Below are positions 5,029 through 21,509 of a stretch of 27,713 bases of DNA, piece by piece. The translations under genes were made by a program, and so were the position numbers. How positions within the stretch are numbered: position 1 is the first letter of the stretch; the number at the start of each line of letters is the position of its first letter. Under the pieces are notes generated by a model. It saw only the letters and a program-made list of their open reading frames with translations, was not told the origin of the DNA and ran no database searches. The stretch comes from an uncultured Candidatus Saccharibacteria bacterium (GTDB lineage: Bacteria > Patescibacteriota > Minisyncoccia > 2-01-FULL-47-10 > CAYTAF01), in contig CAYTAF010000002.1 of assembly GCA_964435865.1 (NCBI GenBank), positions 1 through 27,713 on the forward strand, written 5' to 3'.

Positions 5029-6419
5029 AGCTTTATAACTCTCTCACCAGAAAAAAAGAGGTTTTCACCCCACTGAACGACAAAAAAGTGGGGCTTTACA
5101 GTTGCGGTCCCACTGTTTACCAGTTTGCCCATATTGGTAATTTGCGCACATACATATCTACAGACCTTCTGCGCCGTACGCTTACTTACTTAGGATACGA
5201 AGTAAAGCACGTAATGAATATAACGGATGTGGGCCATCTTACCATGGAAGCGCAAGATAGTGGCGAAGACAAAATAGAGGCCTCCGCAAAAAAGACCGGG
5301 GAAACAGCGCAAGAAATTGCCCTCTTCTACGAAGAGGCGTTTTTTGCCGACCTAAAAAAACTAAACATACTCCAGCCAGATAAAACTCCGCGAGCCACAG
5401 AATATATTAACCAACAAATTTCCCTAGTCGAACAACTGGAGAAAAAAGGTTATACCTATACAACCAAGGACGGTATTTATTTTGACACTAACAAGCTGCA
5501 ACACTATCCACGCTTAATCCAACAGAGCCCCGAAGAAAAAGAGACGGGCACACGAATTCCGGAAAATCCCAACAAAAGAAATCCGGCGGATTTCGCTCTA
5601 TGGAAATTTTCTCCCGAAGATCAGCAACGACAGTTGGAGTGGGAAAGTCCTTGGGGAAAAGGCTTCCCCGGCTGGCACCTAGAGTGCTCCGTAATGTCCT
5701 CTCACCATCTAGATACTCCATTTGATATACATACCGGCGGCATTGATCATAAAGAAGTGCACCATCCTAATGAAATCGCCCAGACAGAAGCAGCGGAAGG
5801 AAATATACTTGCTAATTACTGGCTTCATGCCGGGTTCCTGACAGTTCAAGGTAACAAAATGGCAAAATCGGAGGGAAATATTCAAACTTTAAGAGACCTG
5901 GAAGGCCAGAGTTTTGACCCACTTGATTTCCGCCTGCTGGTTTTACAAAGCCACTACAGACATCCAATGCATTTCTCCATGGATGCCTTGCAAAAAGCCC
6001 GCCAAGCACGACATAATTTATTAAAAAAATTACAAAATTCACCCGCCTTAGAAGACAAAGCTTCCTCGGCTCTTAAGAGGGACCTTGCTACCTTTCAAGA
6101 AAAGATGGAAAATGATTTAAACACCCCAGAAGCACTGGCGGTAATATTCAACGCGAAAGAAAAGGCACACTTTCGGCCACTACTCCAAAAGGCTAACCGC
6201 GTATTGGGTATCGCCCGAGAAAAAGAGTTAACAAAAACAGCAGTTCCAGAAGATATCCAGCGCCTCGTCCAACAACGAGAGACATTGCGTCGAAAAGGCC
6301 AGTATGAACAAGCCGATAAATTACGAGCCCAGATAGAGCAAGCCGGCTGGCAAGTAGAAGATGCACCCGACGGACCACGGCTGACACCTAAAAACAATAA
6401 TTCAAACATCAAACATTAG
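5019..6419 (+). CDS. cysS: Cysteine--tRNA ligase
   Basis: YSCGPTVY, HIGN, MNITDVGH, DFALWK, GFPGWHLECS, DIHTGGIDH...HHPNEIAQ and KMAKS motifs. Confidence 0.98.
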   Translation: MALKLYNSLTRKKEVFTPLNDKKVGLYSCGPTVYQFAHIGNLRTYISTDLLRRTLTYLGYEVKHVMNITDVGHLTMEAQDSGEDKIEASAKKTGETAQEIALFYEEAFFADLKKLNILQPDKTPRATEYINQQISLVEQLEKKGYTYTTKDGIYFDTNKLQHYPRLIQQSPEEKETGTRIPENPNKRNPADFALWKFSPEDQQRQLEWESPWGKGFPGWHLECSVMSSHHLDTPFDIHTGGIDHKEVHHPNEIAQTEAAEGNILANYWLHAGFLTVQGNKMAKSEGNIQTLRDLEGQSFDPLDFRLLVLQSHYRHPMHFSMDALQKARQARHNLLKKLQNSPALEDKASSALKRDLATFQEKMENDLNTPEALAVIFNAKEKAHFRPLLQKANRVLGIAREKELTKTAVPEDIQRLVQQRETLRRKGQYEQADKLRAQIEQAGWQVEDAPDGPRLTPKNNNSNIKH

Positions 6420-6592
6420 AGCGCCAAAAACCCAAAACTCAAATATCACAAACGTGCACAAACAGAACACAAAACCCAAGCCACAAAACACAGACAGGCA
6501 CCTCGGTTAGTTTGTGCTTTGGAAAGTTTATGTTTTGTGTCTCTGTTTGGGCTTTGTAATTTGTGCTTTGTGGCTTTGTTTGCATTTTGCAT
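6402..6592. repeat. Two-armed 7-nt-period element (CAAA arm / TTTG arm)
   Basis: CAAA-type cores at 6403/6410, 6433/6440 and 6470/6477/6484/6491; TTTG at 6511/6518, 6546/6553/6560/6567 and 6579/6586. Perfect complementary pairs include AAGCCACAAA 6478-6487/TTTGTGGCTT 6567-6576 and ACACAAAAC 6467-6475/GTTTTGTGT 6532-6540. Confidence 0.9.
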
Positions 6593-6599
6593 TATAAAT

Positions 6600-7961
6600 A
6601 TGGACCCTAAAATTCCACCACACAATTTAGAAGCAGAGCAGTCAGTTCTAGGAGCACTGATGTTGGATAAAGACGCCATTAATAAAGTGGCCGACTTTTT
6701 AAAACCAAAAGATTTTTATAAGGTCGCACACGAAAACGTCTATCAAACCATTATCTCTTTGTATTCCCAAGGGGATCCAATTGACATACTCGGCCTTACC
6801 AGCCGCCTGCAAGAAAAAAAGCAACTACAAAAAATAGGCGGAAAGGAATATCTAACGGAATTAGTGAACGCTGTGCCTACGGCCGCTCATATTGAATACT
6901 ACGCAAAAATCGTAAAACAAAAAAAGGTACTCAGAGACCTCATTGGAGCATCCACTCGAATTACTGAACTGGCCTACGGAGGAGAAGAAGAAATAGAAGA
7001 CATTTTAGACAGAGCGGAAAAATCAATTTTTGACGTTACCAATCAAGGACGTCGACAAAATTTTGTGTCCGTTAAAGAAGCTCTGCAGGATGCCTTTTCC
7101 CGCATTGATCAGTTGCATCAAAATCAAGACGGGCTTCGCGGACTGCCAACCGGCTTCTATGACCTAGACGGACTACTCTCCGGATTTCAACGCTCCGATT
7201 TTATCGTACTAGCGGCACGTCCCTCACTCGGTAAAACAGCACTGGCATTAAATACAGCTCGTCATGCCGCCTGTGAACACAAAGCTCCAGTAGGAATATT
7301 CTCTATTGAGATGTCTAAAGAGCAACTAGTAGATCGACTGCTTGCCGCAGAAGCGAATGTCAACCTCTGGAAAATCCGTACCGGCAAGCTGTCCACCACG
7401 GGAGAGGATAATGACTTTACCAAGTTGCAGCGTGCCTTTGGAGCTTTAACTGATGCTCCGCTGTTCATCGATGACTCGGGATCCAATACGGTAATGCAGA
7501 TCAGAACCATGGCCCGACGCCTGCAATCAGAGCACGGCTTGGGCTTAATAGTAGTCGATTATCTGCAACTCATGGAATCCCCTAAGCATATGGAATCTCG
7601 CGTTTTGGAAATCGGACAGATTTCCCGCTCTCTGAAAAGCCTGGCGCGAGAACTGGAAGTTCCAGTTTTAGCCCTATCCCAATTATCCCGGGGAGTAGAA
7701 CACCGCTCCCCCCAAGTGCCGAAACTGGCAGATCTCAGAGAGAGCGGTGCTATTGAACAAGATGCGGACGTAGTGATGTTTATTTACCGGGAAGACCGAG
7801 AAAAAAAGGATACCGAGAGAGTAAATGTTGCTGATATTTTAATAGAAAAGCACCGGAACGGACCTACCGGCCAAGTCGAACTGTACTTTAATGAACAAAC
7901 CACTAGCTTTGAAGATCTGGATACCACACATGCCGACTACGCCCCGCAAATGACACAATAA
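6600..7961 (+). CDS. dnaB: Replicative DNA helicase DnaB
   Basis: PPHNLEAEQSVLG, Walker A AARPSLGKT, IVVDYLQLM, ALSQLSR and DLRESGAIEQDADVVMFIYR. Start at ATG 6600; the upstream extension in the track is translated repeat. No intein. Confidence 0.98.
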   Translation: MDPKIPPHNLEAEQSVLGALMLDKDAINKVADFLKPKDFYKVAHENVYQTIISLYSQGDPIDILGLTSRLQEKKQLQKIGGKEYLTELVNAVPTAAHIEYYAKIVKQKKVLRDLIGASTRITELAYGGEEEIEDILDRAEKSIFDVTNQGRRQNFVSVKEALQDAFSRIDQLHQNQDGLRGLPTGFYDLDGLLSGFQRSDFIVLAARPSLGKTALALNTARHAACEHKAPVGIFSIEMSKEQLVDRLLAAEANVNLWKIRTGKLSTTGEDNDFTKLQRAFGALTDAPLFIDDSGSNTVMQIRTMARRLQSEHGLGLIVVDYLQLMESPKHMESRVLEIGQISRSLKSLARELEVPVLALSQLSRGVEHRSPQVPKLADLRESGAIEQDADVVMFIYREDREKKDTERVNVADILIEKHRNGPTGQVELYFNEQTTSFEDLDTTHADYAPQMTQ

Positions 7962-7964
7962 TAT

Positions 7965-7992
7965 CTTATCACTTGTTTCTTGTATCTTTTTG
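7965..7992 (+). repeat. Single-arm 7-nt-period CTT array in the recR leader
   Basis: CTTATCA CTTGTTT CTTGTAT CTTTTTG; CTT at 7965, 7972, 7979, 7986. Confidence 0.7.
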
Positions 7993-7995
7993 ATT

Positions 7996-8595
7996 ATGGA
8001 GCCAAAGCCGATAAAAACAGTCACGGAAATATTAAAAAAATTACCGGGGGTTGGACAAAAAACCGCCCAGCGCTACGCACACTCCCTAAAAAACTTTTCA
8101 GAAAAAGACCTACAGCTTCTGGCAGAAAGCCTCCAAGAACTCAAAACGCAACTTGATAATTGTGAACGATGTTTTGCTACCATCCAAAGACAACAAAAAG
8201 ATCGGCTTTGCAAGATATGTCGCGACCAAAACCGAGATCAAAAATTATTAGCAATAGTAGAAGACGAGCAAGAAATGGAGGCGATGGAACAAACTAACTA
8301 CAGGGGAGTATATTTTGTACTTGGGGGACTTATAAAACCCAGGTCTCGTCAGTACAATAACGTACGGACGCACGAATTCAAGAAACGTATTCAAAGCGAA
8401 CCGCCACGTGAAATTATTCTTGCTCTAAGTCCAGGAGCAGAAGGTTCGGCAACATTTTTACAACTAAAAAAAGAGTTGCAGCAATTTAAAACCCCAGTCA
8501 CGAGACTGGGAACAGGCTTGCCGTCCGAGGCGGATCTCCGCTATGCCGATAAACAGACCCTAGAAGGGGCCTTAAGCAGTAGGACTAAGCTTTAA
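7996..8595 (+). CDS. recR: Recombination protein RecR
   Basis: HhH LKKLPGVGQKTAQR, C4 zinc finger CERC...CKIC, Toprim-like VEDE/YFVLGG and C-terminal TRLGTGLP...YAD..TL; ATG at 7996. Confidence 0.95.
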   Translation: MEPKPIKTVTEILKKLPGVGQKTAQRYAHSLKNFSEKDLQLLAESLQELKTQLDNCERCFATIQRQQKDRLCKICRDQNRDQKLLAIVEDEQEMEAMEQTNYRGVYFVLGGLIKPRSRQYNNVRTHEFKKRIQSEPPREIILALSPGAEGSATFLQLKKELQQFKTPVTRLGTGLPSEADLRYADKQTLEGALSSRTKL

Positions 8596-8911
8596 TCTCT
8601 GTAACCTGAATGCTGGTATAAGGCTGACGATGGCCTTGTTTTTTTTCGTAACGCTTTTTAGGTTTCTTTTTAAATACTACGACCTTATCCCCTTTCCCGT
8701 GCTCTACTACTTTTCCGGCTACTGTAACATCATTTAAATACGGATCGCCAAGCTGAACTTCAGTGTCTTCTCCTTGCTCCGGAGCCACTAAAAGCACCCT
8801 ATCAAATTTCACGGTATCACCGGCCTCTTTTTCCAATTTTTCCGTTACCAAGGTGTCGCCTTGGCGTACTTTATATTGCTTCCCGCCTGTTTCGATAATA
8901 GCAAAACTCAT
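8585..8911 (-). CDS. rplU: 50S ribosomal protein L21
   Basis: FAIIETGGKQYKV and KKKPKKRYEKKQGHRQPYT; ATG 8911; 11-nt convergent overlap with recR. Confidence 0.98.
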   Translation of the reverse strand: MSFAIIETGGKQYKVRQGDTLVTEKLEKEAGDTVKFDRVLLVAPEQGEDTEVQLGDPYLNDVTVAGKVVEHGKGDKVVVFKKKPKKRYEKKQGHRQPYTSIQVTEIKA

Positions 8912-8918
8912 AAAAATA

Positions 8919-9350
8919 TTAAGTATCACGTGTAAAAAGGGATTGTTTTACCAATTGATCCGCTCTTTTGTTGGCCTCGCGCGGAACTAGCTCAAATTTT
9001 ACACTATCTATACCCCCATAGTCAACCATATGATTCCATATTTTCAGAAAAAGAGCCTGGAGTTTCGCATCTTGAATTTTATATTCACCTCTTAATTGAT
9101 TCACTAACAATCTACTATCCGATTTGATGATCACCTCCGCATCTTCCATTCGCTCCTTGCCCAGTAGCTTTTTCAGCTTTTCCAGCGCGAATAAAGCTGC
9201 CTCAAACTCAGCCTGATTATTTGTACCCTCATAAGAAAGGGGCTCCGAATAGGCCTTCCACTCTTTTTGGTCCTTATAGATAACAACCCCTATGGCTGCT
9301 GGCCCCGGATTGTTAATCGCCCCTCCGTCAATATATACAGTTAGTTGCAT
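8919..9350 (-). CDS. rnhA: Ribonuclease HI family protein
   Basis: YIDGGAINNPGPAAIG, TNNQAEFEA, DSRLLVNQ and VPREANKRAD; the catalytic D/E/D/D residues are present. Confidence 0.9.
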   Translation of the reverse strand: MQLTVYIDGGAINNPGPAAIGVVIYKDQKEWKAYSEPLSYEGTNNQAEFEAALFALEKLKKLLGKERMEDAEVIIKSDSRLLVNQLRGEYKIQDAKLQALFLKIWNHMVDYGGIDSVKFELVPREANKRADQLVKQSLFTRDT

Positions 9351-9467
9351 TAGCTTATTAGCTGTTTAGTGGATTAGCGCACTAGCTAACTAGCCTTAAG
9401 TAATTTCTGCTCATCCCGCTCGCCCCCAAGAGCTAACCTCCCAGCCGGCTAGCAAGCTAGATAGATA
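9351..9467. repeat. Two-armed 8-nt-period element (TAG arm / CTA arm)
   Basis: TAG at 9351, 9359, 9367, 9375, 9383, 9391; GC-rich spacer; CTA at 9433, 9449, 9457, with CCA at 9441 and ATA at 9465 in phase. Confidence 0.9.
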
Positions 9468-9474
9468 CGGATAT

Positions 9475-9608
9475 CGAATAATGAATAACGAATATTGAAT
9501 ATCGAAACAAGCACGAAGCTCTCAATGAATCCGAAGCACGCAACACGAATATCGTAACTCCTTATTACTTATTCTTAATTCTTTATTCGGTTTTAATGGT
9601 ATTATTCG
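9475..9608. repeat. Two-armed 7-nt-period element (GAATA arm / TATTC arm)
   Basis: GAATA at 9476, 9483, 9490, 9497 (GAAAC 9504); TATTA 9563, TATTC 9570, AATTC 9577, TATTC 9584; outer pair CGAATAAT 9475-9482/ATTATTCG 9601-9608. Confidence 0.9.
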
Positions 9609-10162
9609 CACTCAAAGTGCGCCATAAACTGCATCTGGTCACCGCCTTGATTTAAGGGCTTTAATTTGAGTACCATACGCTCGCCGTTTTCACACTCAAA
9701 GTACGGAGGAAAATCAAAATCCTTTGCCAACTTGGCCGCATCCCTCTCAGCCGGCTCAAAGCTCATAGCGTAAGATTGAGACTGCCCAAGGTATGTCTTA
9801 ATTCGATCGCTTACCTCACGAGGTGTGACCACCGAGCGCACCACAAAATCTTTCACTCCCAGTTCATGAGCCTTGCGCTTGTCCTCCTCGCGGCCGAGGT
9901 GCGAATACATAACTATAGGGATATCACTGGTAGCCGCGTTCTTTCGAAGAGAACTGATAAGTTCAAAGCCGTCCATTCGCGGCATAATAATACCGGTGAA
10001 CACTAAATCCGGACGCTCCCGAATAGCTATATCCAGGCCCTCTAGGCCATCTTGTGCCGTCAAAACATTAAACCCCTCCTTTTGAAAAACCTCTCGATAT
10101 AAACGACGCGAGGATACATCATCGTCCACCACCAAGATTGTAGAATTGTCTTCATTGGCCAT
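9602..10162 (-). CDS. Orphan receiver (REC)-domain protein with a short C-terminal domain of unknown function
   Basis: ILVVDDD...AQDGLEGL...RPDLVFTGIIMPRMDG...IPIVMYSHL...ELGVKDFV receiver fold, followed by about 60 extra residues; no kinase gene nearby. Confidence 0.9.
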   Translation of the reverse strand: MANEDNSTILVVDDDVSSRRLYREVFQKEGFNVLTAQDGLEGLDIAIRERPDLVFTGIIMPRMDGFELISSLRKNAATSDIPIVMYSHLGREEDKRKAHELGVKDFVVRSVVTPREVSDRIKTYLGQSQSYAMSFEPAERDAAKLAKDFDFPPYFECENGERMVLKLKPLNQGGDQMQFMAHFECE

Positions 10163-10179
10163 AATAAAAGTAAGCTATA

Positions 10180-10221
10180 AATTACTATACATCACACTAG
10201 CTGGTGATATGAATAGTAATT
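10180..10221. promoter_or_regulatory. Imperfect palindrome between pgk and the receiver gene
   Basis: AATTACTAT (10180-10188)/ATAGTAATT (10213-10221) outer stem and ATCAC/GTGAT inner stem. Confidence 0.5.
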
Positions 10222-10230
10222 CAATCAAAA

Positions 10231-11421
10231 TTAATTATTATTAGAGTAATAAAGTGCCTGCAGCCCAGGGAGCTGATTGCCCGCCAGTAATTCCAACATA
10301 GCACCTCCTCCGGTAGAAGCAAAATCAAATTTATCCAGCAGTCCCTCTCTCGCCAGCGCGGCAGTCGAATCACCACCACCAACTAAACTAAAAGCCGAAG
10401 ACTCGGCAAGATACCGACCTATTTTAATGGTACCTTCTCGAAATTCCGGTAATTCGGTTTTTCCCATTGGACCATTCCACGCCACAGTTTCCGAAACATC
10501 AATAATATTTTTGAACATCTCTATTGTATCCGGGCCGATATCCAAAATCAATTCCTCGGAGCTCATCCGGCCAACAGGAGCAAGCCGGGCGCCTGACCCT
10601 CCTTCCGGATCATCTGAAACAACCGCATCCACCGGCAAATGAAGCTTCGTGTCACTCACTGGCAAACCCTTCAAGGATTCCATACTTTCCGGGCTTACAA
10701 CAGAAGCACCTACTGCTATCCCTTTTACGTGCAAAAAAGTATTAGCCAGCACTCCGCCCAAGCAGATATGGTCAGCTACATCCCAAAACCTCTGCAGTAC
10801 TTCTACCTTGCTGCCCATCTTTATACCCGCTAACATCAAAACCAGTGGTTTAGCAGGACGCTCAAAAATATCTTGCAAAGTACTGACCTCTTTTTGCAAA
10901 CGAAGCCCAGCAAAAGCAGGTAAAAATTGAGGAGGTTGCACCACCGATGCCTGCTCCCGATGTATGACTGGAAAGTCCTCAGCAACATATATGTCCCCGA
11001 TCTGAGCCAGTTTGCGCCCTAACTCGGGAGAATTGTCTAACTCCTCTTGTAAAAAACGTATATTCTCAAGCATCAAAATCTCGCCCGGTTGCATATTGCG
11101 TGAGACCTTCTCCAGCTCTGCCCAGTTAAAGCTTTCACAGAAACGCACCGATGTTTGAAGGCGAGATTCTAAATACTTGGCTACTGAAGATAAACTTAAA
11201 TCACTCACTCGTTTCCCTTCCGGCCGACCTCGTTTCGCCACCACTATCACCTTGGCACCGTTTTGTAAAAGATACCGAAAAGTGGGCAAAATAGCCTCTA
11301 TCCTGTATGCTTCTGCCGGATCTACCATATCATCAGATCCCACGGAAACGTCTAAACCAGCCCGCAACAACACACGCCTCCCCTGAAGCTGCGGTATATC
11401 TCTGAGGGTTCGAAGCTTCAT
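10231..11421 (-). CDS. pgk: Phosphoglycerate kinase (divergent N-domain motifs)
   Basis: GRP, MLENIRF, HR, WNGPMG, VGGGDS and STGGGAML; start reassigned to ATG 11421 (396 aa). Confidence 0.93.
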   Translation of the reverse strand: MKLRTLRDIPQLQGRRVLLRAGLDVSVGSDDMVDPAEAYRIEAILPTFRYLLQNGAKVIVVAKRGRPEGKRVSDLSLSSVAKYLESRLQTSVRFCESFNWAELEKVSRNMQPGEILMLENIRFLQEELDNSPELGRKLAQIGDIYVAEDFPVIHREQASVVQPPQFLPAFAGLRLQKEVSTLQDIFERPAKPLVLMLAGIKMGSKVEVLQRFWDVADHICLGGVLANTFLHVKGIAVGASVVSPESMESLKGLPVSDTKLHLPVDAVVSDDPEGGSGARLAPVGRMSSEELILDIGPDTIEMFKNIIDVSETVAWNGPMGKTELPEFREGTIKIGRYLAESSAFSLVGGGDSTAALAREGLLDKFDFASTGGGAMLELLAGNQLPGLQALYYSNNN

Positions 11422-11455
11422 TGTAACACGAAATGTGAAAATTATTGGAGATACA

Positions 11456-12037
11456 CTATTCCCGATAGTCCTGCCTTTCGTACTCAAAAACATTCTCCGG
11501 AGCAAACCAAAAATCCACCTCATGTTCAGCCTCCTGCTTGTCACCACTAGCATGTACCAGGTTATAAATAGCGCGCTTGCCCGCATTAGCGGTAGCAGCT
11601 GATTCTACGGAAAAATCACCGCGAATAGTCCCTGGAGAGGCAAAAGATGGGATGGTCTCCCCTATAATCTTACGCACCACTCCAATGGCATGCGGCCCCT
11701 CTAAAACTATTTTTACTATCGGACCCGAAGCCAAATATTCAACAGTCCATTGTCGAACCTGCTTACCAATCGAGAAATCATCAGTATTTTCAAAATCATC
11801 TTCAAGCGCCAAACCGTACTCCTGATACGTTTTTTTTGTATTCTGACCCAAATTTTTAATCCAATCCTCCTCTGTCGGATAATGTTTATCAATCTGGTCC
11901 TCGTTTGCCTGAGTCATCTCCAGGCCGACTACCTTGAGCCCACGGCCTTCAAAGCGAGAAATAATCGAACCGATCAAGCCGCGGCGAACACCATCCGGTT
12001 TAATAAGAACTACCGTTTGTTCGTGAATATTTGCCAT
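11456..12037 (-). CDS. ndk: Nucleoside diphosphate kinase (long form)
   Basis: LIKPDGVRRGLIG, SGP, PGTIRGDF and catalytic NLVHASG; ATG 12037, 193 aa. Confidence 0.96.
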   Translation of the reverse strand: MANIHEQTVVLIKPDGVRRGLIGSIISRFEGRGLKVVGLEMTQANEDQIDKHYPTEEDWIKNLGQNTKKTYQEYGLALEDDFENTDDFSIGKQVRQWTVEYLASGPIVKIVLEGPHAIGVVRKIIGETIPSFASPGTIRGDFSVESAATANAGKRAIYNLVHASGDKQEAEHEVDFWFAPENVFEYERQDYRE

Positions 12038-12102
12038 AGTATTAGCCAATTAGAAAATTAGTATTGGTTATATAGATAGATATGAACTAATGGTAGTATA
12101 AC

Positions 12103-13987: not shown

Positions 13988-14004
13988 TGCTTATAATATG
14001 CCAC

Positions 14005-14044
14005 AAAAAAGAGTTGAGGGGAAGGCCGATGACGGCCTTCCCCT
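14005..14044 (-). terminator. Intrinsic terminator after nrdJ
   Basis: Perfect 12-bp stem AGGGGAAGGCCG-N4-CGGCCTTCCCCT (14017-14044), followed on the minus strand by CAACTC and a T6 run. Confidence 0.8.
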
Positions 14045-14053
14045 GCTCGTTGT

Positions 14054-14074
14054 CAGATTTGTGGTCTTCCGGGC
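14054..14074. repeat. Left arm of an inverted repeat bracketing nrdJ
   Basis: CAGATTTGTGG (14054-14064) followed by TCTTCCGGGC; complementary to 16457-16481. Confidence 0.65.
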
Positions 14075-16428
14075 TAGTCACACTCACTAAAGCCACAGTC
14101 CTGACAAAGATAGCAGCCGTTAGTGAACATCAAGAGTCCACCGCAGCTGGGACACAGCTCCGGCTGCCTGGTTTTGTCAGATCCGTTCTGGCGAGGTAGC
14201 ATATGATCCTCTGGATCATCTTCGGCCCTATTCTCCAGCAAGTCCATTTGTTCGTTGCCCTCCTGGAGATACTCTTCCATAGCTTTAGCTATGGCATCGG
14301 GGACCGAAACAACTACCGTTCCATCGTCCTGAACTATAGGCCGAAGCCCGCGAATTAAAGACAGCTCATCAATAATCGCAGTTGGCTTCACTCCTGACCT
14401 CAAACACAGAGAGATGAGACGGGCAATGGACTCAGTAAAAGTCATAGCAGAGCTACCGGATTTGCCGAGGTTGGCAAAAACCTCTACTAGACCCTTTTCG
14501 TCTTCGTTGACAGTAACATAGAGGTTGCCCATCTCGGTGTACAGACGGATGGTTTTGCCCTTAACAGCCTTGGGGCGCTCCCGGGGTGTACGCTGGCCAT
14601 ACCCAGACTCTTGCTGAGCCTGCTCGCTTTTCTCCTGCCCTTCGGTAAGGAGGATCCCCTCTCGAGAGCCCTCGCGGTAAACTGTGATACCCTTACAGCC
14701 CAACTCGTGACCATAACGATAAATCCTGTCCACCTCTTCCACAGGAATATCTTCCCGCAGGTTAAGCGTGGAGGAAATCGCGTGGTCAATGTGGGCCTGG
14801 ATCGTCCCCTGCATTTTCACGCGGAAAAAGGGGTCGATCTCGTGAGCTGTCACGAACGTCTCCGGTAAACGCTCCAGCACCTCCTCCGGGCCGTGGTCCA
14901 TATTCCAGCCCTGATTATACGCGTATTCGCGCACCAGCGGATGTAGAACATTAAAGGACGCACCGGAAAGGGACTTACTTTTCCGAACATACTTGAGCGC
15001 GAAAATCGGTTCCACGCCCGAAGTACATCCGGCAAGCACTGATCCCGATCCCACCGGAGGCACCGTGAGCAGAGCAGCATTACGAAGACCCTGAGAGCGG
15101 ATCTTCTCCTGCATTTCTTCGCTCAAACGCTGAATAAAGGCACTTTCCATATGCTTTTCCGCATCAAAAGCGGGGAAAACGCCCTTCTCTTGCGCGAGCT
15201 CAGTGCTCTCGTCGTAAACGAGGTGCTTAATTCGGTCAAAGAGTTGATCGGTGAATTGCACGGCTTCACCGGAATCGTACTTGTAACCGAGCTTGATGAG
15301 CATATCACCAAAGCCGGTAAATCCGACCCCGATACGCCGCGACCAGAGCGAAGCGTTTTTTTGATCTTGGAGCGGGTGCTTGTCCGCGTTATAATCCAGG
15401 ACGTTGTCCAGAAAACGCGTGGCATAGCGCGCGGCTCGCTCCAGACCATCCCAGTCAACCTCGGCGTCCTCTTCAAATTCGTTAAGCACAAATTGAGAGA
15501 GGTTCAAATTGCCAAGGCAACAACAGCCGTAGGGTTCCAGTGGTATCTCCGAGCACGGGTTGGTGGAGATAACCTCCATACCATTATACTCGGTAGTGGA
15601 CTCTCGTTTAACGTTGTCCCAAAAGATCAAGCCGGGTTCAGCGCTAGCGTGGGCACTCTCGATGAGCTTATTCCATGCCTCGCGGGCGTTGACCGTCTTC
15701 CGGATGGAGCCGGTCACCTCACTGTCAAAGTTGAGAACGTGCTCCTCGTTGTTATAGACGGCTTGCATAAAATCGCCCGTAATCCGCACGCTGATGTTGG
15801 CAAATTGGACCTTCTGACGCTCTTTGTCGTTTTTAACGTCAATAAAGTCCAAAAGATCCGGATGATCCGAGCTGATGGTGAGCATTAGAGCACCGCGTCG
15901 GCCGGCTTGGCCAATGGTGCCCGTAGTAAGGGAAAACAAGTCCATAAAGGACACAGCTCCCGTGGAGTAGATGGCCGCGTTGTTAACGGGGGCGCCCTTA
16001 GGGCGCAGAACAGAGATGTCTGAGCCAACACCGCCGCCATAACTGTACGTACGTCCCTCTTTTTTGCAAAACTCGAAGATTTCCTCGAGTGAGTCATCTT
16101 CAAGAGGAATCACATAACAGTTAAGTAGAGTCGCTTGACGCGGCTGGCCGGCCCCGAACATAATGCGACCGCCCGGTACGAAACGAAAGTCCTCCAGCAG
16201 CCAACGGAACTTGCTCTTCCATTCCTGCTGCTTTCCTTTGGTAGCCTCAGCAGAGGCCATCTCCCGGGCGATACGCTCCCACATCTTAGGCGGGCTGTAC
16301 TCCAAGAGCTCACTATCCAGATTACGGAGCGCGTACTTATCCAGAAAGCACCTGATTCTCAGCTCGTCATCCTCGAAGAAATTCCGCGTTTCCTCCGGAA
16401 ACTCCATCTTACTCGGGTCTACAGCCAT
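14074..16428 (-). CDS. nrdJ: Class II (adenosylcobalamin-dependent) ribonucleotide reductase
   Basis: FVPGGRI, LLNCYV, GGGVG, RRGALM, EPGLIF, active-site TNPCSEIPL, CCLGNLNL and RRIGVGFTG; TSCPD-like region and C-terminal CPSC...CYLCQDCG; no ATP cone or intein visible. ATG 16428, 784 aa. Confidence 0.95.
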   Translation of the reverse strand: MAVDPSKMEFPEETRNFFEDDELRIRCFLDKYALRNLDSELLEYSPPKMWERIAREMASAEATKGKQQEWKSKFRWLLEDFRFVPGGRIMFGAGQPRQATLLNCYVIPLEDDSLEEIFEFCKKEGRTYSYGGGVGSDISVLRPKGAPVNNAAIYSTGAVSFMDLFSLTTGTIGQAGRRGALMLTISSDHPDLLDFIDVKNDKERQKVQFANISVRITGDFMQAVYNNEEHVLNFDSEVTGSIRKTVNAREAWNKLIESAHASAEPGLIFWDNVKRESTTEYNGMEVISTNPCSEIPLEPYGCCCLGNLNLSQFVLNEFEEDAEVDWDGLERAARYATRFLDNVLDYNADKHPLQDQKNASLWSRRIGVGFTGFGDMLIKLGYKYDSGEAVQFTDQLFDRIKHLVYDESTELAQEKGVFPAFDAEKHMESAFIQRLSEEMQEKIRSQGLRNAALLTVPPVGSGSVLAGCTSGVEPIFALKYVRKSKSLSGASFNVLHPLVREYAYNQGWNMDHGPEEVLERLPETFVTAHEIDPFFRVKMQGTIQAHIDHAISSTLNLREDIPVEEVDRIYRYGHELGCKGITVYREGSREGILLTEGQEKSEQAQQESGYGQRTPRERPKAVKGKTIRLYTEMGNLYVTVNEDEKGLVEVFANLGKSGSSAMTFTESIARLISLCLRSGVKPTAIIDELSLIRGLRPIVQDDGTVVVSVPDAIAKAMEEYLQEGNEQMDLLENRAEDDPEDHMLPRQNGSDKTRQPELCPSCGGLLMFTNGCYLCQDCGFSECD

Positions 16429-16434
16429 TGACGT

Positions 16435-16440
16435 CTCCTT
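16435..16440 (-). promoter_or_regulatory. Shine-Dalgarno sequence of nrdJ
   Basis: AAGGAG, 6 nt before ATG 16428. Confidence 0.8.
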
Positions 16441-16456
16441 TCTTGATTTTATCGTT

Positions 16457-16481
16457 GCCCCGAAAAAGATCCACAAATCTG
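16457..16481. repeat. Right arm of the inverted repeat bracketing nrdJ
   Basis: CCACAAATCTG (16471-16481) is the exact reverse complement of 14054-14064; pairing extends with bulges to GCCC 16457-16460. Confidence 0.65.
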
Positions 16482-16521
16482 TAAAAGAACTACCCTCTTT
16501 ATAAGGGTGGACTATTAATCT

Positions 16522-16555
16522 AAAAAAAAACGGAACCCCCGACAAGGGGCTCCGT
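16522..16555 (-). terminator. Intrinsic terminator between ftsZ and nrdJ
   Basis: Minus strand ACGGAGCCCC-N6-GGGGTTCCGT with one G-U pair, running into a T9 tract. Confidence 0.85.
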
Positions 16556-16650
16556 GAAAAACAGCTGATAATCAGTATACAGCGCACTCCTTCAAAGTTT
16601 TAAATCCTAAATTCCGCCGGCACCAGCAGAGATAAGCACTTGTGGAACAT

Positions 16651-18003
16651 TTATTCATCTATCTCTTTCAGGCGTTTGCGGATAAAAGCCGGAACCTCGA
16701 AATCCTCCTCACCATCCGAGTCTTCTTCCTCTTTGATGGGCTTGGATTCAACTTCAAACTGAGAGCGCCGAAAAGACCCGCGATTTTGTTCGCTGCGCTC
16801 GCTGCCATCTTGAGAGGATTCCTCGCCGCGCCCGGACCTCTCATGACGATTCGCGTAAACAGGCGCCTTAGGTCGAGCAGGATCTCTATTGCTCTCGGGC
16901 TCGACCTGCTTCCCTTCTTGTTCATTACGTCCTGTACGTTCGCGGTCCTGGCCAGCTGACTGTTTTGGCTGTGCTGTTGACTGCTGCTGGCCCGAAACTT
17001 CATAAATCTCACGCACTTCTTTAATGGGCTCCTTGCGCGGCATCTGCGAGCCCTCAAAACCGGTAGCAATGACAGTAATTTGCAATTGTCCTTTTGGCAA
17101 GGACTCATTGCGCACCGCACCAAAAATTACCTTCGCGTCCGGATCAATATTTTCGGTGATAGCCTGCGCCGCCTTATTAACCTCTGTCATTTTCAAGTCC
17201 TCGCCGCCGCTAATGTTAAAGAGTACGCCCTGAGCACCGTCAATAGAAACTTCAAGCAACGGGGAATTAATAGCTTTTTTGGCCGCCTCCGAAGCACGCT
17301 CGTCGCCCGTACCGGTGCCAATTCCCATAAGGGCGGAACCGGCATCACGCATAATAGCACGCACGTCAGCAAAGTCTACATTAATGATTCCCGGAAGAGT
17401 AATAAGATCCGCGATCCCCTGCACGGCACGCAAAAGCACATTATCCACCATCCGGAAAGCTTCCTCCAGCGTAGTTTTGCTGTCAATCAAGTTCAAAATG
17501 CGATCATTGGGAATTGTAATCAGGGTATCCACATTTCCCTCCAGCTCCTCTAAGGAATCCATTGAAATATTAGAACGCTGGTTGCCCTCAAAGGTAAAGG
17601 GCTTGGTAACAACCCCTACGGTTAAGGCGCCAGATTGACGAGCCATTTCCGCCACCACCGGGATGGATCCGGAAGCAGTGCCGCCGCCGAGACCTCCCAC
17701 TAAAAAAACCATATCAGCTCCTTCCATGGAAGATTCTATATCTTCCTTGTTTTCTTCGGCCGCCTGCCGGCCCAGGTCCGGATCCATGCCAGCTCCAAGG
17801 CCACGGGTAACATTTTTGCCGATATGAATTTTCTCCGGAGCATTAGAGTGGTGCAGATCCTGCGCGTCTGTATTAACAGCAATAAAGTCCACGCCGTTGA
17901 TCTCTGCCTCGATCATTCTCTGGATGGCGTTGCCGCCGCCACCGCCTAAACCAATAACCTTCAATGAGGCAAAAGATTCCACCTGCGGATGAATTTCTGG
18001 CAT
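16651..18003 (-). CDS. ftsZ: Cell division protein FtsZ
   Basis: KVIGLGGGGGNA, GGLGGGTASG, VVTKPFTFEG and T7 loop NVDFAD; long charged linker; C-terminal DFEVPAFIRK. Confidence 0.99.
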   Translation of the reverse strand: MPEIHPQVESFASLKVIGLGGGGGNAIQRMIEAEINGVDFIAVNTDAQDLHHSNAPEKIHIGKNVTRGLGAGMDPDLGRQAAEENKEDIESSMEGADMVFLVGGLGGGTASGSIPVVAEMARQSGALTVGVVTKPFTFEGNQRSNISMDSLEELEGNVDTLITIPNDRILNLIDSKTTLEEAFRMVDNVLLRAVQGIADLITLPGIINVDFADVRAIMRDAGSALMGIGTGTGDERASEAAKKAINSPLLEVSIDGAQGVLFNISGGEDLKMTEVNKAAQAITENIDPDAKVIFGAVRNESLPKGQLQITVIATGFEGSQMPRKEPIKEVREIYEVSGQQQSTAQPKQSAGQDRERTGRNEQEGKQVEPESNRDPARPKAPVYANRHERSGRGEESSQDGSERSEQNRGSFRRSQFEVESKPIKEEEDSDGEEDFEVPAFIRKRLKEIDE

Positions 18004-18007
18004 AAGA

Positions 18008-18050
18008 TTTAGCTTTTAGCGTATTAGCTGATAACTGATTAGTTGGCTAA
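18008..18050. repeat. TAG-core 7/8-nt-period array in the ftsZ leader
   Basis: TAG at 18010, 18017, 18025, 18040 (TAA 18032); TTTAGCT TTTAGCG TATTAGCT GATAACT GATTAGT. Confidence 0.65.
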
Positions 18051-18103
18051 GTTTCAAAGTAATGAAATACTAAACTACTATAGCTTCAAAAAGTTATAAT
18101 TTC

Positions 18104-18131
18104 ATCTTATACTTTACTCATAAATTGTCAA
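18104..18131 (-). promoter_or_regulatory. Sigma-70-type promoter of ftsZ
   Basis: TTGACA (18131-18126), 16 nt, TAAGAT (18109-18104). Confidence 0.65.
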
Positions 18132-18137
18132 GGAACT

Positions 18138-18170
18138 AAAAAAGCACCCTACATATCGGGTGCCTTTTTT
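18138..18170 (-). terminator. Intrinsic (probably bidirectional) terminator between ftsA and ftsZ
   Basis: A6-GCACCC-N8-GGGTGC-C-T6. Confidence 0.75.
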
Positions 18171-18194
18171 GTAATATACTGAAACTTACGGAAA

Positions 18195-19445
18195 TTACGG
18201 CAAAAAGTTTTTAAAAAATCGCTTTACGCCTTGCAAGTCAACCGAAGCCCGTTCCTTAATCGGGTCACTCTGCTCCCCTGACTGATGAAAGCCGGAGATT
18301 ACCAATCCCATTGCTTTAACGTATGCCGGATCGGTTACCTGATCTACCAACCCTCGTGCTTCATGCGGGTAACCAATACGCGCAGGTAATTCCAATTCTT
18401 CTTTAGCCATCTCCAGCAGGCCTGGCAACTTCACGCCGCCCCCCACCAAAACAGCCCCGGCTGGCAAAAAGCCACGCCTGCCTATCCTTTCAAGCTCTTT
18501 ATTGACCAGATCAAAAATTTCCTTTAAACGAGCTTCGATAATCTCTGCCACTTCCTGCCGACGAATTCGCACCTGCTCGTCAAGGCCGAGATCAGCCAAA
18601 TTGATAACTTCTGTTTTGCGGATTTGATGGGGAAGCGCGGATCCATATCGTATTTTTGCCATCTCCGCAGTGTCCAAATCAGTGCGCAACCCAATAGCAA
18701 TATCACTCGTAATAAGGGCGGAGCCAATGGGGATGACCTTAAGATGTGCTATCTCACCTTCTTCATAGACTGCCAATGAGGTAGTTTCTGCACCGATATC
18801 CAGTACAAGCACGCCTAACTCTTTTTGCTTCTTGTCTAGCACTGCCTCCGAAGCCACAACAGGACTTGGATTAAACACGTTAGCCTCCAGACCGCCACTG
18901 CTAACTGCCTTATTCAAATTTTTTAAAAAGGGGCTGGATCCTGTTACCACTAAACTGTCCACTTCAAGCCGCACACCGTTCATTCCCACCGGATTTTTAA
19001 TGCCTTTTTCCGAGTCAATGTTATAACTACGTGCTATTACTTGCAAAATTTCTCTATTTTGTGCTGTGGAAACCGCTTCTGCCGCACGCACCGCTCTATC
19101 TGCATCACTTTGTGTAATTTCTCGGTCTGCACGTGAGACAGCCACAACTCCCTGGGAAGCGTTACCCTCAAGATGCGATCCATTCACTCCGACAACTACA
19201 TTTTTCAAATTCATGCCGGAAACATTGCTGGCTTCCTGCGCAGCATTGCGAATCGAGGCAGCCACATCTTCAATATCCACTACAATGCCACGGCGAGTAC
19301 CCTCACTTCGGCTGTGACCAGTCCCCATAACCTGCAAGCTAGCAAGCGGGTCCTGGCTTTCCTGCCGATCCGCCTTATTGTACATAGCCGTAACGACCCT
19401 GATGGTGGAGGATCCTACATCAAGACCTGTAATAATGTGGCTCAT
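18195..19445 (-). CDS. ftsA: Cell division protein FtsA
   Basis: GLDVGSSTIRVV, RRGIVVDIE, VGMNGVRLEVD, VLVLDIGAETT, IPIGSALITSDIA, EIIEARLKEIF and VLVGGG. Confidence 0.98.
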   Translation of the reverse strand: MSHIITGLDVGSSTIRVVTAMYNKADRQESQDPLASLQVMGTGHSRSEGTRRGIVVDIEDVAASIRNAAQEASNVSGMNLKNVVVGVNGSHLEGNASQGVVAVSRADREITQSDADRAVRAAEAVSTAQNREILQVIARSYNIDSEKGIKNPVGMNGVRLEVDSLVVTGSSPFLKNLNKAVSSGGLEANVFNPSPVVASEAVLDKKQKELGVLVLDIGAETTSLAVYEEGEIAHLKVIPIGSALITSDIAIGLRTDLDTAEMAKIRYGSALPHQIRKTEVINLADLGLDEQVRIRRQEVAEIIEARLKEIFDLVNKELERIGRRGFLPAGAVLVGGGVKLPGLLEMAKEELELPARIGYPHEARGLVDQVTDPAYVKAMGLVISGFHQSGEQSDPIKERASVDLQGVKRFFKNFLP

Positions 19446-19456
19446 AGAAAAACAAA

Positions 19457-19669
19457 TTAAAGACGGCCAAGTTTGCGTAAACGCTCTTTGCGCTTGGCAA
19501 TACGAGACCGTTCAATTGCCTCCTGACGCTGGAGGTGACGAGACTTAGGCTTTTTTCGTACCTGAGCCTCTTTGGCTTCCTGTAAAACACCGCTCCGTTT
19601 CACGCGTTCGGAAAAACGACGCATCAAGGAACCCACGTTTTCACCATCTTGTTTTCTGACTTCAACCAT
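19457..19669 (-). CDS. rpsU: 30S ribosomal protein S21
   Basis: VEVRKQDGENVGSLMRRFSERVKRSGVLQEAK...KPKSR; 70 aa, basic. Confidence 0.92.
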   Translation of the reverse strand: MVEVRKQDGENVGSLMRRFSERVKRSGVLQEAKEAQVRKKPKSRHLQRQEAIERSRIAKRKERLRKLGRL

Positions 19670-19674
19670 AAAAT

Positions 19675-19709
19675 AGTATAAAGTATTAAGTATAAAGTAT
19701 TAAGTATAG
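19675..19709. repeat. Five tandem AGTAT-core heptamers in the rpsU leader
   Basis: AGTATAA AGTATTA AGTATAA AGTATTA AGTATAG. Confidence 0.95.
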
Positions 19710-19738
19710 CATCTCAGCCACACTTCTCTTCCTGGGTA

Positions 19739-20065
19739 TTAAGAATTATCCGCTAACAAATGTAGATGGAAATGCTCCACAATTTGGCCAGCCCAATCAC
19801 CATTATTATTCTTCAGGCGATACCCCTTTTTAGCAACCCCCTCTTCCTTTGCTATCTTCAAACCTAGCTCAAAAAGACCCCCCAAAACAGCCCGCTCCGA
19901 TTCTTCTACTGCGACAGGTGGTTGAACAATATGCTGCTTAGGGATGAGCAGAAGATGCAATGATGCTTCCGGTCGGATATCATGGAATACCAAATAAGTA
20001 TCATCCTGATAAACGATATTAGCCTCCTGTTCTCCGTTTACAATTTTGCAGAAAATACAATCCAT
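19739..20065 (-). CDS. HIT (histidine triad) family nucleotide-binding protein
   Basis: DCIFCKI, FHDIRPEASLHLLLIPKQH and GQIVEHFHLHLL. Confidence 0.95.
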   Translation of the reverse strand: MDCIFCKIVNGEQEANIVYQDDTYLVFHDIRPEASLHLLLIPKQHIVQPPVAVEESERAVLGGLFELGLKIAKEEGVAKKGYRLKNNNGDWAGQIVEHFHLHLLADNS

Positions 20066-20070
20066 TTTAT

Positions 20071-20145
20071 TAGCTTATAGATTACTAGCTTATTAGCAGA
20101 TTAGTGTTAGCTAGTCAGCTAATTCGCTAGTTAGCTAAATAGCTA
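20071..20145. repeat. Two-armed 8-nt-period element (TAG arm / CTA arm) between hisS and HIT
   Basis: TAG at 20071, 20078, 20086, 20094, 20102; CTA at 20111, 20119, 20127, 20135, 20143 (the last is the hisS stop). Confidence 0.9.
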
Positions 20146-21456
20146 TTTTATGCCCAGGCGTTTTTTGACTTCAGTAACAAGCCGACTTATGGGCAAAACT
20201 TCCTGCGCCCCGCTTTCCATATCTCTCAACAAAATATTGTTGTCCATTAGCTCCTTTTGCCCCAAAATCAACACATAACTTACCCCAAGCCGATCCGCCA
20301 TTTTAAGTTGAGAACGTAATGAATCCCGGTCAAAAGAAGCTGCCGCTTTTATGCCGCTCTTTTTCAGTCGGTCCAATAACCCAAAAGAGTGCCGTTTGGC
20401 AGGATCAGAAAGTTGGGCCAAAAATACATCCGGATTATGCTTTGTTGGCACCTCGATGCCGTTTTCTTGGGCTGCTTTCACCAACCGTTCTGTACCCAGC
20501 GCCACTCCTGTCGCTGGCGTTGACTCGCCGCCCAAAGTTTCCACCAATTTGTCGTAACGACCGCCTCCACCCAGAGCTACCTGCCCTTCTGTATCATCCT
20601 GCATCCATATCTCAAAAACGGTCCGGGTATAATAATCCAGGCCCCTGACAATGGCGGGATTCAAATTATAATTGATCTCCAGCTCATCCAGAACCTCTAA
20701 AAACTTTTTAAAGTGCTGATGACAATCTTTGTCTAAATTATCAATGATTTTTGGAGCAGACTTAGCTAAACGCTGCGCCTTCTCACTTTTAGAGTCGAAC
20801 AAATGAAGGGGGCGACGCGCAATATTTTCCCGATCTTCTTTTGGCAGCGCGTCCTGATGAGAACGCAGAAATTCTTTCAGCTTCTCCAGATAATCGGGTC
20901 GACAGTTTTCATCACCAATAGTATTGACTTGAAAAATATAATCGTCAATACCGATACTTTCCAAAAAATTAGCAACCACTTTTACTGTCTCAGCTTCCAT
21001 GGCCGGCGAATCGGAGCCTATCACCTCCAGACCCAGCTGATGAAACTGTCGGTAGCGCCCCTTTTGTGGACGTTCGTATCGAAAAAATGCACCATCATAA
21101 AATAATTTTACCGGATGCGGTTTACTTTTAAAACCATGCTCCAAATAAGACCGGATAATCGGGGCGGTTCCTTCTGGTCGCATAGTCACCCGCTTATCAC
21201 CCTGCGTTCTAAAAGAAAACATCTCTTTGTACACAATGTCTGTCTCTTCACCTACTCCTCGCTCAAAAAGTTCGGTGCTTTCCAAAACGGGAGTATCGAT
21301 CTTTTCATATCCCCAATACTCAGCTTCTTCCCGAAAATTTTGTGACACTTTTTGCCAATATGGCTGTTCTTGGGGCAAAATATCAGCCATTCCTTTCACC
21401 GACTGTAAATCGATATCTTCCGCTTGATCATTTGTGTCCTGGGTGTTATCTGACAT
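20143..21456 (-). CDS. hisS: Histidine--tRNA ligase
   Basis: KGMADILP, MRPEGTA, FRYERPQKGRYRQFHQ, IVRGLDYYTRTVFE and GGGRYD, plus an anticodon-binding domain. Confidence 0.99.
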   Translation of the reverse strand: MSDNTQDTNDQAEDIDLQSVKGMADILPQEQPYWQKVSQNFREEAEYWGYEKIDTPVLESTELFERGVGEETDIVYKEMFSFRTQGDKRVTMRPEGTAPIIRSYLEHGFKSKPHPVKLFYDGAFFRYERPQKGRYRQFHQLGLEVIGSDSPAMEAETVKVVANFLESIGIDDYIFQVNTIGDENCRPDYLEKLKEFLRSHQDALPKEDRENIARRPLHLFDSKSEKAQRLAKSAPKIIDNLDKDCHQHFKKFLEVLDELEINYNLNPAIVRGLDYYTRTVFEIWMQDDTEGQVALGGGGRYDKLVETLGGESTPATGVALGTERLVKAAQENGIEVPTKHNPDVFLAQLSDPAKRHSFGLLDRLKKSGIKAAASFDRDSLRSQLKMADRLGVSYVLILGQKELMDNNILLRDMESGAQEVLPISRLVTEVKKRLGIK

Positions 21457-21462
21457 CTAGAA

Positions 21463-21486
21463 ACAAGAATATAAGTTACAAGAAAT
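21463..21486 (-). repeat. Short CTT-core 7/8-nt-period array in the hisS leader
   Basis: Minus strand CTTGTAA CTTATATT CTTGTTT CTAG-ATG; shares CTTGTTT with the recR leader. Confidence 0.5.
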
Positions 21487-21509
21487 AATTAGCGGACCTA
21501 CGGCCTCTT

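Follow-up and report, generated by a model that had tools for sequence, protein, structure and literature searches.

Heptamer tracts in the gene junctions of a Patescibacteria contig

The stretch of DNA analysed here (the window) is 27,713 nt long and corresponds to bases 1-27713 of contig C2 in a 689 kb genome that is assembled in 97 contigs, has a GC content of 46% and is 85% complete. Proteins encoded in the window place the host in Patescibacteria (candidate phyla radiation, CPR), among Paceibacteria-like lineages. The genes, called with a crude purpose-made model, include cysS, dnaB, recR, an RNase H gene, a response regulator gene, pgk, ndk, ftsZ, ftsA, rpsU, a HIT protein gene and hisS, with RNase H and NDK assigned from Pfam. 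The subject of this study is a set of tracts in which a short unit recurs every 7 or 8 nt, all of which are located in the gaps separating protein genes. A search of the window against Rfam returned no family and no rRNA, and Logan contigs from four sediment runs, at a low depth of about 7x, are identical to the window and have no indels within the arrays. The tracts probably represent copies and remnants of a class of foldback repeats that behaves like insertions at the DNA level: short tandem arrays with a unit of 7 nt, or sometimes 8 nt, mostly accompanied by the complementary array, which together occupy gene junctions.

Thirteen tracts were each compared with dinucleotide-preserving or order-1 Markov shuffles of themselves, taking the maximum over lags 5-10 (Table 1). 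Seven of them exceed the shuffles at P <= 0.005 and a further two at P = 0.03. Eight tracts are clearly periodic (7962-7992, 9351-9400, 9471-9512, 9555-9608, 12038-12064, 19670-19712, 20066-20105 and 20106-20145), as the initial annotation of the window had claimed, but four of the features that it counted with these, namely the periodicity of the 6402-6592 arms and the tracts at 9420-9467, 18004-18052 and 21457-21490, are weak on their own or lack support. Tandem Repeats Finder (TRF) gives seven rows within the window.

The initial annotation also described four elements as two-armed. Two of these, at 6402-6592 and 20071-20145, fold as single hairpins that are more stable than their shuffles. 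In the first, extended here to 6395-6600, 55 of the 72 aligned stem pairs are Watson-Crick and the end of cysS pairs with the dnaB leader, while the 7-nt phasing of the arms is weak (lag-7 match 0.51 and 0.45, P = 0.07-0.36). The third, at 9475-9608, has inverted arms and folds end to end, but is no more stable than shuffles (z = -0.55); TRF also gives a period of 14 for 9471-9506. The fourth, at 9351-9467, did not hold, as 9348-9470 forms two local hairpins and not one (z = +0.16), and its AGCT-containing units are self-complementary.

Table 1. Repeat elements of the window, with one foldback family from a related metagenome contig (L024). P values and z-scores are relative to shuffles; MFE, minimum free energy.
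Position	Strand	Feature	Evidence
6395-6600		imperfect palindrome of about 200 nt occupying the cysS-dnaB gap; 5' arm A/C-rich (CAAAAC-type), 3' arm G/T-rich (TTTGTG-type); overlaps with the stop codon of cysS (6417-6419), its end being 3-4 nt short of the dnaB ATG (6600)	MFE -53.9 kcal/mol, z = -3.0
7962-7992	+	single short period-7 array of CTT-containing units, between the dnaB stop and the recR start	lag-7 match 0.62, P = 0.03; under the TRF score threshold
9351-9400	-	period-8 array, GCTAA-N3 on the minus (sense) strand, adjoining the ATG of the RNase H gene (8919-9350)	lag-8 match 0.62, P < 0.001; TRF 9349-9378
9420-9467	-	proposed partner arm of 9351-9400; weak, no pairing with it	P = 0.04-0.44
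9471-9608		foldback of GAATA-type and TATTC-type period-7 arms, starting at the stop of the response regulator gene (9602-10162, minus strand)	9471-9512, period 7, P = 0.001; 9555-9608, period 7, P = 0.005
12038-12064	-	single period-8 GCTAA-type array adjoining the ndk ATG (12037)	lag-8 match 0.63, P = 0.002
18004-18052	-	weak run of GCTAA-type units with periods of both 7 and 8, within the leader of ftsZ	P = 0.15-0.16
19670-19712	-	array of period 7, AGTATWA on the plus strand, that stops 5 nt short of the rpsU ATG	P < 0.001
20066-20145		period-8 foldback, TTAGC arm then GCTAA arm, occupying the hisS-HIT gap; first unit overlaps the hisS stop codon	MFE -24.3 kcal/mol, z = -3.25; 20066-20105, period 8, P = 0.03; 20106-20145, period 8, P = 0.001
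21457-21490	-	CTT run reported for the lepB-hisS gap; unsupported as periodic	P = 0.5-0.8
L024:5211-5330, 9874-10000, 11885-12036		L024 foldback family	

The ftsA-ftsZ gap (18100-18165) carries a terminator-like hairpin at 18144-18163, followed by a promoter-like site on the minus strand, TTGACA-16-TAAGAT, at 18131-18104. ftsZ may therefore possess its own promoter, with the weak GCTAA run, which lies downstream of both features, in its leader.

Abundance, dispersal and turnover of the elements

The class to which the window tracts belong is abundant, intergenic and far beyond chance. The genome contains 115 period-7 and 50 period-8 TRF arrays, compared with 13-20 and 11-15, respectively, in order-2 Markov shuffles, and the lag-7 self-match of intergenic DNA has a z-score of 9.3 with harmonics at lags 14 and 21, whereas coding DNA of the genome has no lag-7 signal. 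By gap type, 17% of co-directional, 22% of divergent and 8% of convergent gaps contain arrays; arrays are found in both orientations, and many keep a near-constant period of 7-8 over 4-5 units. Arms start at stop codons and end 0-10 nt ahead of start codons, a placement already proposed from the window, and of the 78 arrays in co-directional gaps, 43 have a stop or start codon no more than 10 nt away, so that the element itself constitutes the gap and occupies the gene junction.

The 165 arrays comprise 104 distinct canonical units. Several unit families recur (TTGGAAA, CAAAAC/TTTGTG, GCTAA-N2-3, ATACG-N2, CGAATAA, TCAAAAA and GATACAA), and the AAATTGG type is found 11 times and the AAAACAC type seven times across loci and genomes, which contradicts the earlier view that each locus has a different core. 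When units are compared between genomes at one mismatch or fewer with rotation, everything matches. The view that the units consist of a conserved core and a degenerate spacer also failed, as within-array mismatches fall on the unit columns as by chance (variance 0.67 vs 0.72 expected; invariant columns 3.38 vs 3.31). Mismatches spread in this way, as under uniform decay, indicate that the appearance of a core plus degenerate spacer is the product of a few random changes and that there is no selected core. The arrays also exhibit a signature of slippage in the form of perfect or near-perfect 14- and 16-nt higher-order repeats, such as the one at 19675-19708 (TRF period 14, 2.4 copies, 100% identity).

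Some members of the class form dispersed multi-copy families, and some lie in frame in conserved genes where relatives have nothing. All-against-all BLAST links 130 intergenic regions. The 6395-6600 element has about ten dispersed copies with 70-86% identity, in which the arm units keep one order and the loops vary, its family extending over contigs C1, C3, C4, C9, C30, C35, C55, C60, C67, C84 and C91, and elements on C24, C89, C6 and C30 have common non-repeat centres with 84-95% identity. Contig ends overlap by exactly 55 nt within heptamer repeats, which means that the repeats broke the assembly. Insertion into conserved genes is seen only outside the window. The gene for the CCA-adding enzyme contains a two-array element in frame, GAAGCAC x3 and TTTCGAA x4 (L178:622-720, which is contig C7 1321-1419); the resulting insert of about 29 residues (about 144-172) has no counterpart in eight relatives, in which the two matched halves are about 9 nt apart. 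Similarly, gltX contains a perfect 5.3-copy AAATCAA array (L179:1226-1262, which is contig C5 18525-18561) that is read as a K/N/Q/S-rich peptide.

The genome also carries repeats of other kinds. A Y1 (IS200/RAYT-like) transposase gene at C8 16413-17138 has the same GC-rich palindrome of about 45 nt on both sides, and constitutes a system like that of repetitive extragenic palindromes (REP) and their associated tyrosine transposases (RAYT) that is separate from the heptamer elements; a REP/RAYT identity was rejected for the window tracts because this gene is flanked by different, GC-rich palindromes. Further GC-rich nested palindromes that are not built from heptamers occur as copies of 100-133 nt with 90-94% identity, one set at C1 17494-17793 and C45 3616-4562 and another at C24 1690-2058, C31 6294-6468 and C79 1661-1959.

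The elements turn over fast between relatives. The nearest relative in the genome collection is related only at the level of order, and the closest metagenome relatives, contigs L022 and L024, encode histidyl-tRNA synthetases (HisRS) with 71% and 64% identity, respectively, which makes them too distant for nucleotide alignment of the gaps or a covariation test. Both have the gene order of the window, mraW...hisS-HIT-rpsU-ftsA-ftsZ, and both have two-armed heptamer elements in these gaps. In the hisS-HIT gap, the GCTA-type foldback is kept in L022 but L024 has different units; in the HIT-rpsU gap, the three genomes have three different units; and the rpsU-ftsA gap measures 11 nt in the window, compared with 100 nt in L022, where it holds two arms, and 55 nt in L024, where it holds one. 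L024 also contains a clear dispersed family, in which near-copies of one heptamer foldback of about 110 nt (AAATCCG/AAATTCG... then ...TTTGGAATTT) occupy three gaps of the division cluster. In 191 kb of other relatives' loci, period 7 is dominant, with 79 arrays. Thus the class and its geometry persist between relatives, but individual elements do not, their units being gained, lost and swapped.

PF05635 genes between heptamer arms

The heptamer architecture also forms the two arms of small cassettes that carry a PF05635 gene (23S rRNA intervening-sequence protein, an Avd-like four-helix bundle) in the loop. The host genome possesses four PF05635 genes. The gene on C73 is flanked by CGTAT-type and ATACG-type inverted arms, and the gene on C6, in the secY-adk interval, by TTCCAAA and TTGGAAA arms; both of these arm families are also present elsewhere in the genome without a gene. 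The gene on C74 sits at a contig end. The gene on C39 lacks arms and encodes the Avd of a diversity-generating retroelement, a setting in which Avd acts with a reverse transcriptase.

On C73 (L025), three ATACG-type arms of alternating orientation lie at 119-152, 1965-1997 and 2389-2421, so that the PF05635 gene and an adjacent gene of 591 aa (C73:158-1933) are each bracketed by inverted arms. In the C39 retroelement (L028:1092-1268 and L028:2014-2178), the PF05635/Avd gene (C39:4926-5228) lies upstream of the reverse transcriptase (C39:3682-4236) and of a template/variable repeat pair that has 91% identity, with differences at plus-strand T, which is A on the gene strand.

PF05635 is carried by 46 of the 81 genomes of the class. 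Flank complementarity has a median of 22.5 for 28 PF05635 genes of the class and 14 for 48 neighbouring control open reading frames (ORFs; p = 1.5e-7), and 71% of the 28 genes exceed the 95th percentile of the controls; in this and the following cross-phylum and co-variation comparisons, related genomes are treated as if they were independent. Runs of period 7 or 8 are present in 17 of the 56 PF05635 flanks and in four of the 96 control flanks. The arm types around PF05635 genes are TTAGC/GCTAA, AAGTAT, GAATA, ATACG and TTGGAAA, of which the first three are also found in the window: TTAGC/GCTAA arms like those of 20066-20145 flank PF05635 genes in L034, L037, L038, L041, L043 and L047, AAGTAT-type units like those of 19670-19712 are cassette arms in L035, and CGAATAA-type units near-identical to those of 9471-9608 flank PF05635 genes in L076, L068 and L036. 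Across 80 loci from Patescibacteria, Gammaproteobacteria, Bacteroidota, Acidobacteriota, Clostridia, Planctomycetota, Desulfobacterota and others, inverted arms surround PF05635 with period 7 dominant and with a unit composition that follows host GC. Closely related PF05635 proteins, at 50-60% identity, sit between quite different units, which means that there is no simple sequence code.

Array density co-varies with the gene family, heptamer arrays being about three times more numerous in genomes of the class that have the gene. With one 20-kb stretch sampled per genome, placed independently of the position of the PF05635 gene, the count of period-7 arrays per 20 kb is 3.85 for 17 genomes of the class that carry PF05635 and 1.40 for 19 that lack it (p = 0.0005), compared with 0.5-0.6 in shuffles, and a spectral peak at 7 is present in the positive genomes only. 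Among solved structures, the C73 protein matches 2gsc and 2rld, both of which have five chains in the deposited entry; the former is a Xanthomonas protein. PF05635 is considered homologous to Avd (PMC10053308), and rRNA insertions with PF05635 ORFs have been noted in CPR bacteria (PMC11270868).

Interpretation and comparison with known systems

Three explanations were offered in the initial annotation: a ring-shaped RNA-binding protein that reads phased cores, long mRNA hairpins for processing or translational gating, and arms or empty sites of a gene-cassette system. The last is the only one with positive evidence, as PF05635 genes lie between arms on C73 and C6, in the 28 class relatives and in many phyla, and array density co-varies with the family, but no loop in the window has a gene, or any detectable gene remnant, inside it. 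A foldback repeat that behaves as an insertion at the DNA level is the reading we favour for the window tracts. Under this reading, the arrays would grow and shrink by replication slippage in blocks of one or two units, and the complementarity of the arms would be maintained by palindrome-templated copying or repair. The gene-less copies of the window would then stand to the gene-carrying cassettes as MITEs (miniature inverted-repeat transposable elements) stand to full elements, as their non-autonomous relatives. The transcript may fold into a stem like that of rRNA intervening sequences cut by RNase III, which may be why junction insertions are tolerated. Any effects on the expression of dnaB, rnhA, ndk, rpsU, the HIT gene or ftsZ are likely to be a side effect and not designed control.

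A further step is possible, though we put it forward only tentatively. The PF05635 protein, an Avd-like, pentameric four-helix bundle, could be the trans-acting partner of the heptamer arms, recognising their phased geometry and not their sequence and helping to copy or maintain the foldbacks, perhaps with a polymerase or reverse transcriptase. In that case, the heptamer excess in many phyla would have been left by a single family of selfish cassettes, with the window elements as its non-autonomous copies.

Several observations weigh against the insertion-like reading. No target-site duplication is evident at the aligned copies of 6395-6600, a mobilising enzyme for the heptamer elements was not identified in the genome, and its sole transposase-like gene, the Y1/RAYT-like gene on C8, has unrelated palindromes as flanks. 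An empty site in a close strain was not identified either. Most window elements have no near-identical copy elsewhere and resemble others only at the level of the unit, so that they may have arisen locally by slippage. A six-frame profile search for decayed PF05635 genes in the gene-less loops found none, and descent from cassettes is thus conjectural. Repeats that break assemblies can hide genes. The co-variation figures carry no phylogenetic correction, and three PF05635-negative genomes still reach four arrays per 20 kb. Lastly, where a gap has no detected array, folding of the sense strand is favoured over that of the antisense strand by 3.6 kcal/mol (p = 1e-7), and this structure with its sense-strand bias would be compatible with some general role of gap hairpins at the RNA level.

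The tracts could instead be plain heptamer microsatellites, similar to short tandemly repeated repetitive sequences (STRRs) or long simple sequence repeats (SSRs), produced by slippage in place and neutral decay, with inverted pairs arising from occasional template switching and with neither mobility nor a link to any gene. The perfect 14-nt repeat at 19675-19708, the 104 different units, the even spread of mismatches over unit positions and the lack of close copies of most window elements are all consistent with this, and the excess of heptameric SSRs in many bacteria has been ascribed to slippage in a 2007 survey, as cited in PMC4692102. However, members of the dispersed families have arm order and non-repeat centres in common, arrays as a rule come in inverted pairs with a tight link to PF05635 flanks, array density follows PF05635, arrays adjoin gene ends, and a whole element lies in frame within a conserved gene. 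We consider microsatellites an unlikely explanation overall. The initial claim that the tracts are not ordinary microsatellites stands as regards the dispersed palindromic elements but has to accommodate the signatures of slippage.

Slightly less probable again is selection at the mRNA level, with the tracts acting as long imperfect intercistronic hairpins for RNase III processing, for stabilisation of the transcript or for the coupling of translation, in which pairing with the end of the upstream gene would mask the downstream start. Such a role would suit arms that run from stop codons to 0-10 nt before starts and the pairing of the cysS end with the dnaB leader in 6395-6600, as well as the scarcity of a Shine-Dalgarno-like motif (GGAG/GAGG/AGGA at -20 to -4), which about 14% of the predicted genes have; leaders in this genome are A/T-rich. 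The genome encodes an RNase III (C87:625-1020), and the similar stems of rRNA intervening sequences are cut by this enzyme (PMC4990558). A selected RNA stem would favour G.U over A.C oppositions on the sense strand, but in stems aligned without an energy model the two are equal in array-bearing gaps (87 G.U vs 84 A.C), as they are in other gaps (182 vs 164), which speaks against such selection. Nor do MFE z-scores differ between array-bearing and array-less gaps. Two of the four proposed two-armed elements, at 9351-9467 and 9475-9608, fold no better than shuffles, orthologous gaps gain, lose and replace elements, and the same elements are found within coding sequence.

It is very improbable that the tracts are phased binding sites for an oligomeric RNA- or DNA-binding regulator of the host similar to TRAP: the period, which in many arrays of 4-5 units stays nearly constant at 7-8, and the position of many arrays in 5' leaders beside the ATG, which recalls the TAACTGA repeats of Beggiatoaceae (PMC4679880), would fit, but one small genome has 104 unit types without conserved core positions, arrays take both orientations and also occur in coding DNA, closely related PF05635 proteins lie amid quite different units, and the genome, at 85% completeness, yielded no TrpBP (TRAP) gene (PF02081). 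Three other candidates were rejected: CRISPR, as a constant repeat-spacer structure is absent; a supply of stop codons, as the TAG of the unit is a stop only at hisS; and G-quadruplexes, as the units are AT-rich.

The geometry of the window, then, does not signal a new regulatory code. Heptamer repeats of this kind break up the assemblies of ultra-small genomes and enlarge gene junctions; they also take the place of leaders of essential genes and now and then put extra peptides into conserved enzymes, and annotators should recognise them. The wider link between heptamers and PF05635 merits proper study; if true, it would join two loose ends, the intergenic heptamer excess of bacteria and the role of 23S rRNA intervening-sequence and four-helix-bundle proteins, and both questions could be tested with one protein and one kind of DNA. 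A search of the open-access literature found no paper that connects heptamer arrays with PF05635 or reports such arrays from Patescibacteria, which is not proof of novelty.

Two known systems also place short units in leaders. Bacillus TRAP sites, which are spaced GAG/UAG triplets, also combine short cores with near-constant spacing, but their period is 5-6 and not 7-8, and all targets have one core that is read by a dedicated ring protein; the window has neither a single triplet core at 2-3-nt spacing nor, in its host genome, an identified TrpBP gene. Beggiatoaceae, cyanobacteria and Bacteroidetes have TAACTGA direct repeats ahead of their start codons (MacGregor 2015, PMC4679880), which consist of a single unit in sense orientation that is almost never inverted, whereas the elements described here have many units and usually form inverted pairs.

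MITEs, Correia/NEMIS elements, enterobacterial repetitive intergenic consensus (ERIC) sequences and Rickettsia palindromic elements (RPE) are likewise multi-copy, hairpin-forming, located at gene junctions and co-transcribed, and some RPE copies lie in frame in conserved proteins. Terminal inverted repeats with dispersed copies are found for 6395-6600, and other window elements show similarity at the unit level only. Unlike MITE-type repeats, the elements have 7-nt periodic arms and families that are far more diverse in sequence, and neither a target-site duplication nor a cognate transposase with matching ends was found.

The 23S rRNA intervening sequences of Coxiella and Leptospira that carry an S23p/PF05635 ORF have terminal inverted repeats that form a stem around the ORF; they are considered selfish elements of unknown mobility, and RNase III cleaves the stems (PMC4990558). 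They are located in helix 25 or 45 of 23S rRNA and have a near-perfect 28-bp stem that has not been described as built from heptamers (PMC4990558). The elements described here, in contrast, lie between or inside protein genes, have phased 7-nt arms and mostly lack an ORF. Inverted arms that flank a PF05635 ORF are present at C73 and C6 and not in the window, which contains three of the arm unit types.

The heptanucleotide STRRs found in filamentous cyanobacteria and the heptameric SSR excess of bacteria, as cited in PMC4692102, have in common with the present arrays a period of 7, an intergenic bias and strong over-representation, with slippage as the proposed origin. Head-to-tail 7-nt tandems (the 115 arrays), over-representation and intergenic bias are all found here. 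STRRs, however, have a few fixed units per genome, often in long perfect arrays that are rarely paired, whereas the arrays of the present genome are short and imperfect, have 104 units among 165 arrays and are mostly paired foldbacks.

The GGGAATC repeats of Xanthomonas (Rehm et al. 2015, PMC4692102) are also intergenic tandem heptamers, mostly of about four units and often in two inverted arrays, with 70-75 inverted pairs. Their length and sequence vary among related species while the single or paired type tends to persist, and no link to insertion sequences was seen. They differ in that each genome has one G-rich unit with G-quadruplex potential, compared with about 100 AT-rich units here. 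The Xanthomonas study reports no link to PF05635 (PMC4692102), although the PF05635 structure 2gsc is from Xanthomonas.

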